Assembly (NCBI GenBank): GCA_026025075.1
Contig: JAPEUI010000156.1
Location: 1 to 33,839 of the forward strand
DNA length: 33,839 nucleotides
Origin: Vezdaea acicularis
Taxonomy: Eukaryota
Direction: 5' to 3'
The position numbers and the translations under genes are program-made. The notes beneath the pieces were generated by a model. That model made no database searches. It worked only from the letters and a program-made list of their open reading frames with translations, and had not been told where the DNA came from. Within the stretch, counting starts at the first letter, position 1. Each line of letters begins with the position of its first letter. Below, in pieces: positions 14,449-24,253 of the stretch.

Positions 14449-16569
14449 TCATGGCGGGCTTTCTTTAGTGTCCTTTACCACGCCGTCTTCCTTGGCTACT
14501 TGAAGAGGGGCGCATCTCGCGCTGACCAAACGCCCTTTTGATACGACGCGTCGCTTGGTTGGAGAATCCGGGCAGGGCAAGTTATCACCGCTCATTCGCC
14601 TCTTCGAGCCGCTCGAATTGATGGTGATATACTCAACACTAAAAGAGGCCTCTCTTCTCGCTGCACTATTTGAACCGCATGATGTGGCACGGGATGCTGG
14701 AAGAAGTATCTCAGCCTCGCAAGGAGTGACAGGCCCCGCCCCTTGTAAAACCTGGCCTTTCTCTCCTCGAGCTTGCTTGCCATTGATTATGGCCGTTGGA
14801 GTCGTTCTCGGGATTGGATGCGTATTCTCCCTTGCTGTCGACGAATGCGTACATAGCTGGTCAGAGATCTCTTTTGCTGTTGGAGGATGCATACGCAGCT
14901 GATCATGGATGCGAGATTCTGCACTTTTATCAGAAAGATCGTGATCTTTGTTTGCCGGAAGGGGCCGAGGGGGCGGCTGTCCGTGAGATACGCTCCGAGC
15001 AGTAGAAGCAGCGGATGGTTTTGAGAGGACAGGAGTGTTTGAAGCACTGCTCTGGCGAGTATTGGCTGGAGCCTTCGTCCCATTCGATCCATCTCTCTGT
15101 CCACCCATAACCTCATGTATATGCTCAACGTGCTCGTCATGAATATCTGGTCGTGCAATAACACCTGATGTGCTTCGACTGCTGTTCGCCGAACCATAAT
15201 ATGAATAGTCGGGCATCGAATGATCGTCGTTGCTTCCATTGCCATAAGATGATGATTCCTTCGAACGATGTCCGCCTAGCCCCATAGCATAACCATTCTC
15301 GAAGAAAGGATCTGGCAAAGAATGTATTGCGCCACCTCCCCAGTACCCACCAGGAAGAGATAGTCCGCGAGAACGGATGGCATGAGGCGTCGGTAGTATC
15401 GCACAAGTAACCGGTAAGTTGAAAGGGACCGGCGCTAGGGGAGGGCCTTTGGACTCCCGTGCTTCCGCTCGTCGTTGTGGAGAATGAGCGTGCGCGTCGT
15501 GGTCGTCCGGTTGAGATGGCTGTTGAGACATGACTCGGGCATTGAAAGCCGCTCCATGAACATGTTGCCACATTGCTGGGTTCGGGTAAGCGATACCCTT
15601 GCTTTCCAGAAGACCTGAACCCAGAGTGTATTAGAACAACATGGTGGACCTATCTGCCAGGGGGTTGGGACTGGGTTGCTGAACGTAGCCAGCAAAGGGT
15701 AAACTTGCCTAGAGGAGCATGCACGAACGCGAAGGCAACAATATTTCTTTTGCGTTCCCAAGTCATGTGGTATGAAGTTTGCTGGGCAATGCCCTCAGCG
15801 ATTATAACTTTGATCCGACCAAGGTCTTGACCGGCATCCCACCAGCCTTGAGTGATGAGATCTTCATGAAAGGGGGGGAATCCTAGTAGCTCCATCTGTC
15901 CGTTCTTATCAATTCCTGCCATACATTCAGAATTAGCAGCGACTCGTTGGTAGGTTCCTTGAGTTCGGGTATAGGACTGACTATTACTGGATTCTGTCAA
16001 AACCTTAGTCAGTGATTATCCACCAGTGACCTGAAGCTGGGGAAGTACCTATAACGTGAGGCCAAGGGCCCTCTGCATGAAATAGTGATGAACTAAGCTC
16101 ATGACAATCAGACCTATAGTTCTTCTCTGAAGGTATGTAGCGCGACCTTGAAGAGGCGTTTTGTCTCACCTGACTTGTCGACCATCGATGTAGACTCTCG
16201 CCTCGAAGAGAAGCATCTGTTCAGGACGGGCTGTACTTTGCAACGTGTGAGACACCTTCGGAGAGCTCCAACTATGCATTGAGATTCTGAAGGGGTGGCC
16301 AGGAGGCAAGTTTGACACGAGGCTGGTTACGATGGGCAAATGTGATTGCGCGCCATGGTCGAAAGGGAACGGCAGACTGGTGGACGATACCCTTTGTAGG
16401 ACCGCATCTGGATATGGCGTCTGTCAGAACGTTTGGCCTAGATGAATATAGATGATCAAGAGATAGACTCACCAGGATCAGAGACGACCGTGCAACTCGT
16501 GTTGAACTCCTGGATGGGGACCTTCAGGCCGGCTTGAAACAGCAGCACGTCCCAGTCTTGATATCTCAT
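14449..16569 (-). CDS. Conserved fungal hypothetical protein (MRYxDWDVLLF family) with disordered C-terminus; 6 exons
   Basis: MRYQDWDVLLFQAGLKVPIQEFNTSC | LPPGHPFRISMHSW...FEARVYIDG | WPHVI | ESSN | IDKNG..GFPPFH..WWDAGQDLGRIKVIIAEG..AFAFVHAPL | LESKGIAYPNPAMW, continuing into the 374-aa ORF. Includes a 12-nt microexon (15993-15982) and a GC-AG intron (15708-15615). Confidence 0.82.
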
Positions 16570-17580
16570 TGTTGAGGCTATTTAGATGTGGTACTGCTTA
16601 AGAAGATCAATACCTTGAAGTTAGCGCGTAAGTCCGAGGCCTCTCGCTATCCAACCAGGCAAAGGTCGGAGTCTCAGCACGGCTCTATGTTATTGGTGTC
16701 GGATGGAAGAATGGATAAGGGCCTGTGGGGTTTAGGGTAGATGGCAAAAATATATCTCGCTGGCGGCATAGGTCGTAAACATCTAGATGATGGGTAGTGG
16801 ACGTGGGGTGGGCCTCTGACGTGGGAAGAAAAGAAGGCACGAACCGCGAGTCGTCACTGCCAGGTGGAACATAGGAGGAGGTATCGTATAGCTGACTGCT
16901 CTTAGAAGCGATGAGAGGGGAAGCCGTAGGCTGATGTGCGGAGTAGAGATTGGATAGGAAGGGGCATACTTTCCACGCTCGGTCTTTATGAGAGTAGTAG
17001 TACAGGTCAAGCGCTTAGTTTGTACACTTGATGCTTCTTCGTTTGGCAAGGGAAAGGTTCTAGGTCAGTGATTAAATGGAGATGGTCTTGTTGTGGTTCC
17101 AATGGCGTGCGTTCGAGTCAAGCTCCTCACCTTAGGGCGATCGCGATGCACAAACCAATGCAGTGGTACAATTCCTGATAGAACGCTGTTTTGAGTTGAG
17201 GTAATGGCCAGATAACTTCACCAGCACGATCAGTATATCCTTCAATAGTCTTCACAAGAAGAAACCGTTATAGTCTGCGCTCCCTCGACCGCACGCCCTT
17301 GAGTAAGAAGCACGCGGGAGGTACGCACACTGCTCCACCGAGCATATGACGCCATCTCCGATCACGACAGTCTTTTCTCGTCCACGCTCTTATCGTAACA
17401 CGTTTGGCAGTCTATCGCTCCGGGACGCAGCAAAGGAAGGGACATTCGGCAGAGGGACTTGCTTGTTGTTGAGGACAGGAGGTGAACGAGATCGCGCTCG
17501 GTTCCACGGAAACCCCAGCCCCAACGCCGGCGGCACAAGCGAGACGGGTTGTGCACATGATCTGCAAGAGACTGCAGCGA

Positions 17581-19838
17581 CTACTGAGCGAAGACGGAGT
17601 CGTAGCCTCGACCGTTGGCCTCGAGGCGATCCGAGATGCTCTGCTTCCGGTTCATGTACATCTCATTCAGTCGGTCCACGGGGACGGCGTCGGTCGGGCC
17701 TGGCGCTTCGGGATCAAGGGCGCCTGGAAGTCCCTGTGGTGGCTGAGCTCCGGACATCGATGGCAGGTGAGAATGCGCGGCATGAGGACTAAGGTCAATT
17801 GAAATTCTCGTCAGCATCATGTATCGATCTTCCGTTCCTCGTCAGCGCCGAACAAATGGGAAAAAAGGGTCAGGGTCTAGAAATCACACAAGCGTCCCCA
17901 GTAAAGAGAAACACGCGACTATAGAGACTTTTTGGGTTTTCTTCATTCGAAAGCATAGGAGAGAGTATGAGCTTGTGCTGCCGAAAGGGTCCGTGTCTAA
18001 GCAACAGATTGCCCATGAGAGGAGAAAATCAAAGGCCTGGCAGGCAGTTCGTGCTCAAAGTAGCTACAAGAACTGTAACCGCCGGAAGGTAAATGCAGAT
18101 TGAGCCCCGTGAGATGCAGAGTTTTTATACAGCCTTCGCTCACCGTCGGAGCACTGATGTCTTTCAAGAAACATTTCGGACACTGCAGAGATCCTCCCAT
18201 CAACTTTTTCCGAACGCTAATGGGCAAAGCTAGCCAAGGGCTTTTCGAGGTGCATCAAAAGAAAAGCGCCCATGGACAGATGAATTGTGGATTTTTGAAA
18301 TGAGAACTAGCTGCGACCGAGCAAATTGGAAAACAGAAGGTTCTTACTGTGGTTTGAACGTCAGTCGATGCCGAGGGACAGGAAAGTGCATGTCACGTAC
18401 CTTCATTGGAGCATAAGGACTAAAATGGTTTTGGGGGGGTATCCCCATGCTGGGGTAGACAGGAGGTGGAGGTGCTGGTCTGTACGGGGTACCGGCCGGG
18501 CCGGAGTTGTTTTGAGAGCGGCCCCAGCTGAGTCGAACACGAGAATTGCCAATCGGGTATCCCTGCATCTGGTTGATCGCCATCTCTGCCGCATGTCGCT
18601 GGACGAACTGAACAAAGCCACAGCCCTTGCCGGGTGGAATCTTGACGTAGGTGATCTCGCCGAAGCCTTGGAAGAACGAGCGAAGCTCATCCTCCGTGAC
18701 ATACCCCGAAAGGCCACCGACGAAGACCGTCGTGTTGTTGGGATCGGTGAACTGATTCATCGGCTGTGGAGATCCATAGTATCCCATCGGCGGAGCTCCC
18801 ATCGAGAACATTCCCACCGGGCCGGCAGCACCTTGCATCCCCCCAGCCATCGCACCGGGCCCACCACCGCCACCCGTCTTATTTTTGGGAGTGGCCGTTG
18901 AAATTCGCATCGGTCGATTACCGCAATAGACGCCTTGCATCTCCGTCAACGCACGCTGCTGATCACCCTCATCGGAGAAGCGAACGAAACCGTATCCTCG
19001 AGACATGCCGCTGATGGGATCTGTCATAATTTTCGCCGACTTGCAAGAAGGGAATCGACTTTGGAACAAGGAAACCAAAACATATTCATTAACTTCGGGT
19101 CCAAGATCACCAACAAAGATAGAGTACTCCGGCCCCCGGTCGTCCCTGAGGAAAGGTTAGCATATACCCAAGCTTGAGCAGGTGAGATGGAAGGTCTAGT
19201 ACGAAGGAAACTCGTTCACCGACCTCCTATCCGCAAGACCACCTCCGGAAGCCCAGTTGAGCTTGAAAGGACGAGTTGAATTAGGGATGAGCTGGCCGTT
19301 GAGACCGAGCGCCTTCTCGGCGGCCGCAGGGGACTGGAAATCGACGAAACAGTAACCGGCATTACTGCTGTAAATCAGTACGCATTAAAGTGAGGTCCGC
19401 CTCTGGGAGCGAGCTGGGCATACCCTGAGAACTTATCACGAATCATCTTGACGTTGACTTGTTCTCCCATACCAAACCAGACGCTGCGAACGAAATTCTC
19501 GTCAATCCACGGCTCGAGCTCACCCATCCTATTGCCCCATGTCAGATATCACATCCCACGTTGGAGACCCGAATGATCGATTGGGTCATGAGGGGGGGCG
19601 CCCGCAGTGAGGCCCCTCGCATCGAGACTCACCAGAGAGTCGTCTTGCTATCCGTGCCCGGTTGAGCGGCACCAGCGGATCCTGGCTCGCCGCCGCTGCC
19701 CTGAAAGGGAGCGATGGGGTTTCCCGCACCTTGCTGGCCCATCGGTGGCTGCTGTTGCTGGTTGGGGCCGGCCGGAGCACCCACCGTTTCCTCAGCACCC
19801 TGCTGCGGGTTCTCGTAGTTAAACTGTTCGAAATTCAT
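17581..19838 (-). CDS. NAM8: Triple-RRM RNA-binding protein, Nam8/Ngr1/Csx1 (TIA-1-related) family; long isoform ~468 aa, short isoform ~400 aa ending PMK* at 18344
   Basis: TLWMGELEPWIDENF, AGYCFVDF, FKLNWA, YSIFVGDLGPEVNE, SRGYGFVRF, DPNNTTVFVGGL, KGCGFVQF, VRLSWGRS. Exons 19838-19633, 19528-19424, 19367-19224, 19145-18402, 17788-17581. The terminal exon depends on the twin-intron model; orthology within the family is not resolved. Confidence 0.9.
17789..18401 (-). other. Putative [D1,2] spliceosomal twin intron (stwintron): internal intron 18400-18347 nested between G1 and T2 of the external donor
   Basis: Minus strand reads ATG AA-G-[GTACGT..ACTGAC..ACAG]-TAAGAA...GCTGAC..CTTAG-T CCT CAT. 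Only the reconstituted G|TAAGA donor gives the phase-2 junction the last exon needs. Confidence 0.72.
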
Positions 19839-22727: not shown

Positions 22728-24253
22728 ATGCTGGTCTTTTCGATATGGCTTCTCCTGGCCTTGGCGCCGTTAATACTGTGCGCCCAGGACTACTACGAGG
22801 TGAGCACGCGCGCCCCCGTGGACGTGACATGGCACGAATGCGGGCAATTGAATTTCCTACATTGTACACGGTTCTGACGAAAGTTATAGCTCCTGGGCAT
22901 CGACCGTCAGGCGGATGAGCGACACATCAAGAAGGCGTACCGAACATTAAGCAAGAAATACCACCCAGACAAGAATCCGTACGTTCTCCCTTTTCTTGTC
23001 CCCAACTCATAAGAATACCAAGCCCATTTGCTACTCCGACCCCCATTCCTCTCAAAGCCCTCTCAAGGCTTTGCCGTACATGCCCAAAAAAAAGCTTCTA
23101 CCCCTTCCCCCTTTCCTACGTACCGTCCGCCCTCGACCCAAACTCTCACTGACCAGCCCCTCTCCACAGAAACAACGACTCCGCCGCCAAGAAATTCGTC
23201 GAAATCGCCGACGCCTACGACGTCCTCTCCACACCCGAGACCCGCCGCATCTACGACCAATACGGGCACGACGGCGTCGAGCAACACCGCCAGCGCGGCG
23301 GCTCCGCCGGCCAACACCACGACCCCTTCGACCTCTTCCGCCAATTCTTCCCCGGCGCCGGCGGCGGGGGCCACTTCCAGAACGGCGGCCAACGCCGCGG
23401 CCCCAACCAAGAAGTCCGCGTCACCATCCCCCTGCGCGACTTCTACACTGGCGCCTCCCGCGAATTCAGCATCGAGAAGCAAGCCCTCTGCGACGAATGC
23501 GACGGTACCGGCAGCGAAGACGGCGCCACCGAGCCCTGTCCCTCCTGCGCCGGCCGCGGCGTCAAACTCACCAAACACATGCTCGCCCCCGGCATCTTCC
23601 AACAAGTCCAAGCCACCTGCGACCAATGCAGCGGCTCCGGCCACAAGATCCTGCACCCCTGCCCCACGTGCCACGGCCACAAAGTCCTCCGCAAAGTCTT
23701 CACGCACCCCCTCATCATCGAGCCCGGCGTGCCCAAGGGCCACCGCCTCGTCTTCGAAGGCGACGCAGACGAAAGCCCCGATTGGTCTCCCGGCGACTTG
23801 ATCGTCCATCTAGACGAACACCCACCCCTCTCCCCTGCCTCCAACCCCAACGAAGCAGACCGCACAGACGGCGCCTTCTTCCGCCGTCGCGGCCCCCACC
23901 TCCTCTGGACCGAACTCCTCTCTCTCCGCGAAGCCTGGATGGGGGATTGGTCCCGCAACCTCACCCACCTCGACGGCCACATCGTCCCCCTCCGCCGCCC
24001 CCGCGGCAGCACCGTCCAGCCCCGCACCCTCGAAGTCGTCAAGGGCGAGGGCATGCCCGCCTGGGAGGGCGCCGAGCAGGGCGATTTGTTGGTCGAGTAT
24101 CTCGTCGTCCTCCCGGATCAGATGGATAGCGGCATGGAGAAGGAGTTCTGGGCGCTGTGGGAGAAGTGGCGGCGGAAGAGCGGGGTTCATCTGGGCAGGG
24201 ATAGTGGGAGGCCGAATGGCGGCGCGGGGGAGGGTGGGAGGGATGAGCTGTGA
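22728..24253 (+). CDS. SCJ1: ER-lumenal type I DnaJ/Hsp40 co-chaperone (Scj1-like), ~414 aa
   Basis: Signal peptide [20 protein letters not shown] domain QDYYELLG...KKYHPDKNP, four zinc-finger repeats ([32 protein letters not shown]), C-terminal RDEL. Exons 22728-22799, 22890-22978, 23170-24253. Confidence 0.93.

Follow-up and report, generated by a model that had tools for sequence, protein, structure and literature searches.

The gene and its last intervening sequence

The stretch of Vezdaea acicularis DNA analysed here (the window) comprises positions 1 to 33,839 of contig JAPEUI010000156.1 of assembly GCA_026025075.1. Between 19838 and 17581 its minus strand carries a gene of five exons encoding a Nam8/TIA-1-type protein with three RNA recognition motifs (RRMs). 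All coordinates are those of the window and all features of the gene lie on the minus strand. Sequence comparison strongly supports the view that the last intervening sequence of this gene is a genuine, old [D1,2] spliceosomal twin intron (stwintron), in which a complete internal intron splits an external intron's donor between nucleotides one and two. An earlier note, made from the DNA letters alone, had proposed this arrangement; the exon end, the 54-nt intron, the TAAGAA that follows it, the distal branch point and acceptor, the distal reading frame and the coordinates given for them all hold.

Exon 4 (18401..19145) encodes RRM2, a linker, RRM3 and a Pro-rich stretch and terminates in CCA ATG AAG. 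The internal intron (18347..18400, 54 nt) has a GTACGT donor, an ACTGAC branch site 14 nt from its end and a CAG acceptor, after which TAAGAA starts at 18346. The final base of exon 4, G18401, is also position +1 of the external donor, the next base being G18400; positions +2 to +6 of that donor are TAAGA (18342..18346), which G18401 joins when the internal intron is removed. The resulting junction, AA|GTAAGA, has positions 1, 2 and 5 as the class requires and, as first described, is a donor missing from the genomic exon boundary that forms only after internal excision. The same excision gives ATG AAG TAA, with the TAA (18346-18344) in frame, and in the full gene model a 399-aa protein ending in APMK.

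The external donor is followed at +7 to +26 by a pyrimidine- and U-rich tract (18322..18341; U 0.50, Y 0.75 in the window). The external intron body (17789..18346) is 558 nt long, or 559 nt with G18401, seven times the mean (74 nt) of the other four introns of the gene. A likely branch site, GCTGAC (17810..17815, its A at 17811 lying 22 nt ahead of the acceptor G), and a phase-2 acceptor AG (17789..17790, CCTTAG|T) precede the last coding exon (17581..17788), in which a T finishes the Asn codon and 67 codons (PHAAHSHL..YDSVFAQ) run to a TAG at 17583-17581. Excision of both introns joins AA to T, giving Asn and a 467-aa protein. This is the sole in-frame join: a phase-0 AG is absent upstream of the distal open frame, and joining the genomic GTACGT donor straight to 17789 shifts the frame and reaches a stop after 24 wrong residues, so the reconstituted phase-2 donor is indeed required. 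The split G1|U2 donor, the complete internal U2 intron, the new donor and the restored frame can all be read from the sequence. The alternative order of excision, [A2,3], in which the downstream exon begins with G, is ruled out by T17788 at the start of that exon and only the [D1,2] order is possible.

Upstream, exon 1 (19633..19838) starts with the ATG at 19838-19836, encodes a Q/G-rich N-terminus and ends with the TG of a split Trp codon; intron 1 (19632-19529, GTGAGT..TAG) leads to exon 2 (19424..19528), which holds the start of RRM1 (MGELEPW..). Intron 2 (19423-19365, 59 nt, GTATGC..CAG) is followed by exon 3 (19224..19364) with the remainder of RRM1, and intron 3 (19223-19146, 78 nt, GTCGGT..CAG) leads to exon 4. 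The assembled model has no internal stops.

The assignment to the Nam8/TIA-1 type, also made in the earlier note, is borne out by the Pfam RRM_1 domain, found three times in orthologue P0009 (P-numbers denote orthologue proteins) and twice in exon 4 (E = 2e-33), and by yeast Nam8 as the best solved relative [residues 24-401 of 523; E = 4e-76 with a single sequence, 9e-104 with a profile]. A profile of 32 orthologues matches Nam8 only through the end of RRM3, position 368 of 456. The source names of the matches are mixed (Nam8p, Csx1-type regulator, C23E6.01c) and the gene is therefore termed a member of the Nam8/Ngr1/Csx1 family. The tail encoded by the last exon gives a chance match only among solved structures (E = 0.06), no Pfam match and no usable match in the ESM Atlas. 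The AlphaFold2 prediction for P0009, built with 32 sequences, has a disordered linker at 345-412 and a single helix at 419-443, the helix with a predicted local distance difference test score of 63-80; a complex prediction of RRM3 (258-352) with the tail (400-450) of P0009, for which the alignment was not used, returned no answer (score 0.01). In the yeast U1 small nuclear ribonucleoprotein (snRNP), Nam8 is stably joined with RRM3 and tail contacting Prp39/Prp42, and the tail covers the RNA-binding face of RRM3, according to the passages of PMC5648754 cited here.

The distal exon and the locus in related fungi

Exon 4 used as a query gave 1139 matches with E ≤ 1e-30 among 2198 candidates, and the 120 listed orthologues of at least 435 aa were sorted by their junction with the help of a tail profile. 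A clean junction, ..AP(L/M/I)-N and then the tail with zero extra residues, is present in 27 of the 120. This set takes in Tuber, Morchella, Lipomyces, Saitoella, Pneumocystis and Nam8p-named proteins in two yeasts, as well as transcript-like entries from contigs of about 2 kb (e.g. P0009, P0010, P0013). Asn is followed directly by PHAAH at these junctions, and the residue created by the reconstituted donor is therefore the conserved residue. Nine further orthologues (P0005, P0006, P0008, P0014, P0016, P0017, P0019, P0022, P0025) bridge ..K to the tail with a spurious insert or deletion; all are NCBI genome models, mostly derived from metagenome-assembled genomes and mostly of lichen fungi, and the inserts and deletions are invented because gene predictors cannot model the GG..AG gap. 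The tail follows a diverged junction in six orthologues, three end at ..K, 23 continue beyond ..K by read-through without the tail (some of these models fuse to the next gene instead), five are of a ..Q type, and 47, mostly Sordariomycete or distant, have other C-termini.

An exhaustive phmmer search with the tail finds 42 representatives at E ≤ 1e-3, mostly orphan open reading frames (ORFs) of 52-190 aa in which the exon was called alone. A word-indexed search with the tail only returned two longer proteins among 53 candidates, both read-through artefacts, in which similarity to the window begins exactly at PHAAH, after an in-frame Ser equal to AG|T. Over its last 33 codons the tail of the window differs from its relatives with a proportion of non-synonymous changes (pN) of 0.17-0.32 against a synonymous proportion (pS) of 0.57-1.05; for the tail as coding sequence the figures are a pN of 0.14-0.32 and a saturated pS. 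The position of the stop is identical in 14 of 14 sequences and the profile score of the window tail, 87.5 bits, lies inside the range of the other tail-bearing loci, all of which keep YAG|T followed by CCN-YAY; CTRAY-type motifs occupy the external branch-site position in relatives. These patterns indicate that the tail exon is under purifying selection and is real coding sequence of this gene. The conservation of the distal peptide, put forward originally as a point to check, extends across the Ascomycota. An undetected middle exon supplying the change of phase, raised at the same time, is neither required nor permitted by orthologue junctions that hold no extra residues and by lineages that encode the junction intron-free.

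The layout at the DNA level was followed in metagenome loci (L-numbers). With exon 4 as the query, 464 stretches were matched and 375 of them encode a relative; 80 were kept and, with the window, make up 81 sequences. The stwintron layout (exon-G, an intron of 49-85 nt, then TA(A/G)..) is found in 42 of the 81, that is in 41 of the 80 loci. The 42 sequences reduce to 24 distinct lineages including the window; the donor is split in all 24, and in all of them an internal intron of 49-85 nt with CTRAY motifs lies in the same place. External introns measure 448-577 nt in nine relatives, and gaps of 916-988 nt in L041, L052, L053 and L067 imply longer ones. The tail is present in 17 of the 42 sequences, borderline in one and not seen in 24; six of these 24 contigs have less than 1.1 kb downstream and 15 have at least 1790 nt.

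In 16 of the 81 sequences AAG|TAG.. follows directly: two are cDNA-like, and 14 are genomic, Pezizomycete-like loci with upstream introns, where the tail lies 213-273 nt further on behind a single ordinary phase-2 intron (AA|GTAGTT..YAG|T) at the same site and in the same phase. Six sequences read AAG/CAG|TAA.. directly with all upstream introns gone and are half-spliced cDNA-like contigs. The remaining 17 are contiguous across the site; 14 of them have the tail with no intron here, L037 is too short, and L022 and L079 are cDNA-like with short unrelated ends. Several of the ordinary-intron loci are 97-99% identical to Tuber-like proteins, and the best named protein matches (94-98%) liken the stwintron-type loci to Lecanoromycetes, Leotiomycetes, Dothideomycetes and Eurotiomycetes; such class labels are only approximate because exon 4 is very conserved (92% identity between the window and its best orthologue). 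The comparison indicates that the layout recurs far beyond chance, and it points to a history in which Pezizomycetes have an ordinary intron and the later classes a twin intron.

Two loci or groups of loci differ from this scheme. In one lineage (L054, L056, L059, L061, L062, L063, L073) the ‘internal intron’ measures 63, 72, 72, 75 or 78 nt, in every case a multiple of three, and consists largely of CAG/CAA repeats; its donors are poor in most loci (GTTGGT, GTGGGC), with GTGAGT in L054. The cDNA-like L063 retains the repeat intron, which is read as ..APMK-VGG-polyQ-..NHQQ-stop, and the repeat-rich sequence may have become coding sequence in this lineage. L041 (1825-4171) has one ORF over the three RRMs, with no upstream introns, and both parts of the twin intron plus the tail; it represents either an intron-poor lineage that keeps the stwintron alone or a transcript unspliced only at this site.

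As for the neighbours of the gene, the next one downstream (about 16456-16581 in the window, minus strand) begins MRYQDWDV...; it follows the orthologue in several fungi and is wrongly fused to it in models of about 1000 aa (P0031, P0032, P0034, P0045, P0051, P0054). On the plus strand, an open frame at 23153-24253 has a J-domain-like start and CxxCxGxG repeats and resembles a DnaJ-type chaperone gene.

The external intron and spliced contigs of relatives

The external donor begins GTAA in all 24 lineages (GTAAGC in 14, GTAAGA in six, GTAAGG in two, GTAAAC and GTAAAG in one each), whereas the internal donors of the same 24 loci take 16 forms, and a stop would arise from just eight of them. In the eight Pezizomycete-like lineages the donor is poor and likewise produces a stop (GTAGTT in seven, GTAGAG in one). 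The external donor is sub-consensus, with A at -1 and a position 6 that is A in the window and never U in the 24 lineages. Mean U content at +7 to +26 is 0.41 in external against 0.23 in internal introns (p = 2e-4 by a Wilcoxon test on 24 lineages, which are not independent of one another) and reaches 0.53 in the eight Pezizomycete-like ordinary introns. The immediate in-frame TAA of the step 1 product, which the earlier note had singled out, is present as described; its source is a phase-2 external intron that begins GTAA. Any phase-2 intron beginning GTAAG or GTGAG gives an immediate stop if retained and the coincidence alone therefore proves nothing: the stop is automatic and does not by itself reveal design.

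Within the external intron, conservation is uneven. The first 200 nt are 0.82-0.83 identical in the pairs L055/L065 and L055/L066, like exon 4, whereas identity in the same pairs is 0.55-0.57 for the internal intron and for the remainder of the external one (shuffled baseline 0.51). In the Leotiomycete-like pair L042/L058 identity after the stop is 80.7%, compared with 78.9% in the coding sequence. A conserved block (18183..18240 in the window) comprises a small hairpin, TTTGCCC, TTAGCGTT (18220-18213) and then GATGGGAGGATCTCTGCAG. Its core, TTCTCC-NN-TTAGCGTT ... TGGGWGG-AT-TGCA, lies 99-126 nt past TAAG, and the 8-mer TTAGCGTT is identical in 15 of 15 deduplicated sequences, tail-bearing and tail-less and from different classes (the window with L014, L043, L049, L055, L071, L074, L076, L024, L025, L042, L050, L058, L060 and L080). 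The complementary flanks of TTAGCGTT, TTCTCC and GGRKGG, are able to pair in 89% of cells, compared with 47-71% when slid; covariation in this helix is weak, with double-sided changes in two pairs, and the sequences compared are those that yielded the structure.

Other explanations of the block were considered. An Rfam search of 17400-18500 at E ≤ 5 returned two chance-level matches (retron msr and a human long non-coding RNA) and does not indicate a small nucleolar RNA or other known RNA. As a coding alternative last exon the block was rejected, its nucleotides being kept and its frame not, with early stops in L049 and L076. The TTAG of the block was likewise rejected as an alternative acceptor: an upstream branch-site motif is absent, and the block is unspliced in the cDNA-like L025 and L042.

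A contig was called cDNA-like when it carries RRM1 to RRM3 in one ORF while its close genomic relatives are split, and such contigs are therefore taken to derive from spliced RNA. Each splicing step is seen only in relatives, by way of these contigs. For step 1, the cDNA-like L045 differs from the genomic L064 (96-98% identical) in lacking exactly intron 3 and the 83-nt internal intron, and it retains AAG|TAAG.. plus a further 1.4 kb. For step 2, L079 reads ..APM-AAT-TAC-TAG (APM-N-Y-stop), and its 3′ part aligns to the genomic L026 (69.6% over 125 nt) directly after TACTAAC..TTTTTTGTAG|C TAC TAG, 733 nt past the exon end in L026. That lineage therefore has the full stwintron, with an internal intron of 67 nt and an external one of about 667 nt. 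In these Eurotiales-like contigs, L026/L030 (3226-3965) and L079 (1765-1775), the twin intron is intact and the tail is reduced to Asn-Tyr-stop; step 2 makes the protein one residue longer, its main effect being the removal of about 670 nt of 3′ sequence. Altogether, the cDNA-like contigs from stwintron-type lineages comprise six half-spliced and two fully spliced ones.

A transcript/genome pair from a species with both the stwintron and the conserved tail was not found among the best named matches or in the search with the P0008 tail, where the nine protein matches include no transcript-derived protein of the same species as a tail-bearing locus. Two Pezizomycete-like, cDNA-like contigs, L013 and L018, retain the ordinary last intron (AAG|TAG..) with all upstream introns gone, and in L013 the tail is not seen within 790 nt. 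Intron retention at this site may thus predate the twin intron.

A possible isoform choice, rival readings and known systems

The best overall explanation, which we rate as moderately probable from the sequence comparisons, is an old stwintron with a regulated second step and use of both isoforms. Step 1 would take out the 54-nt intron and bring G18401 to TAAGA, creating the only donor that reaches the last exon in frame; its product would encode a complete, tail-less protein of 399 aa. Step 2 would take out the 559-nt external intron, change AAG (Lys) to AAT (Asn) and add the conserved, helix-ending tail of 68 residues, for a final product of 467 aa. Step 2 may be slow or regulated, because its donor is weak, its intron is very long for a fungus, and the U-rich tract and the conserved block are in place. 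The half-spliced RNA would then double as a working mRNA and the cell would make tailed and tail-less forms. The isoform switch taken by itself is plausible and about an even call. The invariant donor, the conserved block, the half-spliced contigs of relatives and the loss of the conserved tail, not found in 15 stwintron-type loci that extend at least 1790 nt further, lend indirect support to the earlier proposal that the intermediate is a working isoform; for V. acicularis itself the proposal is an extrapolation from these comparisons. That V. acicularis produces and uses the two isoforms, in some ratio, is a plausible inference.

Several observations weigh against this explanation. All six half-spliced contigs come from lineages in which the conserved tail was not found, so they may be the final mRNAs of those lineages rather than intermediates, and among the cDNA-like contigs no tail-bearing species is seen to accumulate the intermediate. 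In the initial 200 nt of its external intron the window is near baseline against its relatives (0.51-0.58, shuffled 0.51) and resembles their external introns solely in the short block. The 24 lineages are related, and counts and Wilcoxon tests across them overstate independence. The invariant GTAAG may have been kept instead for strong pairing with U1 in the presence of A at -1. A stop followed by roughly at least 770 nt of RNA could make the intermediate a target of decay and not an mRNA. The tail of yeast Nam8 is dispensable (PMC3082912, in the passage cited), and the tail described here does not align with it.

The leading competitor is a constitutive stwintron in which both steps are rapid, the half-spliced RNA is short-lived or decayed, the stop is incidental and the 467-aa protein is the only product; we regard it as rather unlikely. 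It is the default reported for [D1,2] stwintrons in the cited parts of PMC9024468 and PMC5639578, where the ‘splinter’ intermediate is a precursor, and it sits well with a stop that follows automatically from phase 2 and GTAAG, with the clear purifying selection on the tail in the group of the window and with the fully joined form in 27 of the 120 listed orthologues. However, it leaves unexplained the exon-level conservation of the first 200 nt of the external intron in the closer pairs, the 8-nt core shared by 15 of 15 tail-bearing and tail-less sequences, the poor, stop-giving GTAGTT donor kept by the Pezizomycete-like loci, and the six half-spliced against two fully spliced cDNA-like contigs.

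A more elaborate form of the isoform switch, in which the two steps would sense the gene’s own product, is offered tentatively and is on present sequence comparisons improbable. The tail-less mRNA would carry a 3′-untranslated-region-like element, the weak donor would be aided by a Nam8/TIA-1-type protein, and the level of that protein would set the ratio of the isoforms. Step 2 would remove both the stop and the conserved element and add the C-terminal helix, and a donor hidden until step 1 is complete would enforce the order and timing of the decision. The cis features expected under such self-control, a weak donor and a conserved U-rich tract, are present.

That step 2 has been lost in V. 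acicularis, leaving the 54-nt intron as the last intron, TAA as the true stop, a 399-aa protein and a relic distal exon, is very improbable. The 15 loci with ample downstream sequence and no conserved tail, the three listed orthologues that terminate at ..K and the six cDNA-like contigs that stop at the corresponding TAA speak for such a state, but the window tail is open over 68 codons, scores within the tail-bearing range, differs from its relatives mostly synonymously with its stop position kept, and is preceded by an intact branch site and a YAG|T acceptor. Finally, a different splice path, either through a hidden small exon in the 558 nt (which contain an 85-codon open frame at 17997-18254) or in one step from GTACGT to the distal acceptor (one-step mis-splicing of [D1,2] stwintrons that leaves an extra G is reported as occasional in the cited parts of PMC9024468 and PMC12403724), is extremely improbable: one-step splicing shifts the frame into 24 wrong residues and a stop, orthologues have nothing extra between ..AP(L/M)N and PHAAH, and the intronic block is kept in no single reading frame, is interrupted by stops in L049 and L076 and is left unspliced in L025 and L042.

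Among described stwintrons, the closest system is the lipS [D1,2] stwintron of Aspergillus nidulans, Aspergillus niger and other Leotiomyceta (Flipphi et al., 2017, PMC5639578; features as given in the passages cited). There too the internal intron comes between G1 and U2 of the external donor, GG opens the sequence, several classes of Leotiomyceta share the stwintron, and early-diverging Pezizomycetes have a standard intron at the site, implying insertion of an intron into an existing one. Compared with lipS, the gene is another one; the stwintron is the last intervening sequence and in phase 2, with an intermediate that combines an immediate stop with a complete ORF; the external intron, of 450-1000 nt, contains a conserved block; and lineages have lost the downstream coding tail rather than the stwintron. 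The [D5,6] stwintron of a reticulon-like gene (Kavalecz et al., 2019, PMC6616335) resembles the present one in being old, Pezizomycotina-wide, subject to alternative splicing and associated with loss of a neighbouring exon; its donor is split elsewhere, and its alternative event skips an exon near the 5′ end instead of choosing between stop and tail. The sister and unique [D1,2] stwintrons of Hypoxylaceae and Xylariaceae share the geometry, the ‘splinter’ and the one-G mis-splice (cited parts of PMC9024468 and PMC12403724), but are mostly young, species-specific and often repeated, whereas the Nam8-like one is single-copy and class-spanning at a conserved site. The stwintron search model in the cited part of PMC9024468 takes internal introns of at least 42 nt. 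One supplementary file of each of these two papers names no RNA-binding or RRM gene.

The likeness to the Nam8/TIA-1 system is of another kind: the product belongs to the family, and the donor of step 2, weak and followed by a U-rich tract, is the type of site that these proteins help (PMC5648754, cited passages). The known self-targets of the family in the literature cited are mammalian cassette exons and not twin introns. The [D1,2] stwintrons are an established class, and the member in this gene is apparently new, with an intermediate that is a complete ORF; no description of a stwintron in this gene was found in the literature searched, outside of which lay other supplements, subscription papers and the first description of 2013. 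In recursive splicing of long metazoan introns, the first reaction regenerates a 5′ splice site for the second; what is removed is the upstream part of a long intron, and the new donor consists of the exon end and an intronic GU. Here, by comparison, a complete small intron lies within the donor, and a full ORF makes up the intermediate.

The finding extends the very short list of old stwintrons described so far (lipS, bioDA, reticulon-like) by a single-copy, class-spanning [D1,2] member and is useful for the study of introns that arise inside introns. It also accounts for the C-terminal disagreement among public models of this conserved RNA-binding protein, which misjoin the exons or read through and so often miss the conserved helix at the C-terminus. 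What the intermediate carries is a full ORF, and the product of the gene belongs to a family that acts at donors of this type. With its cis elements mapped, the locus offers a test case for a stwintron intermediate that may serve as an mRNA and for a Nam8/TIA-1-type protein that may tune its own isoforms.

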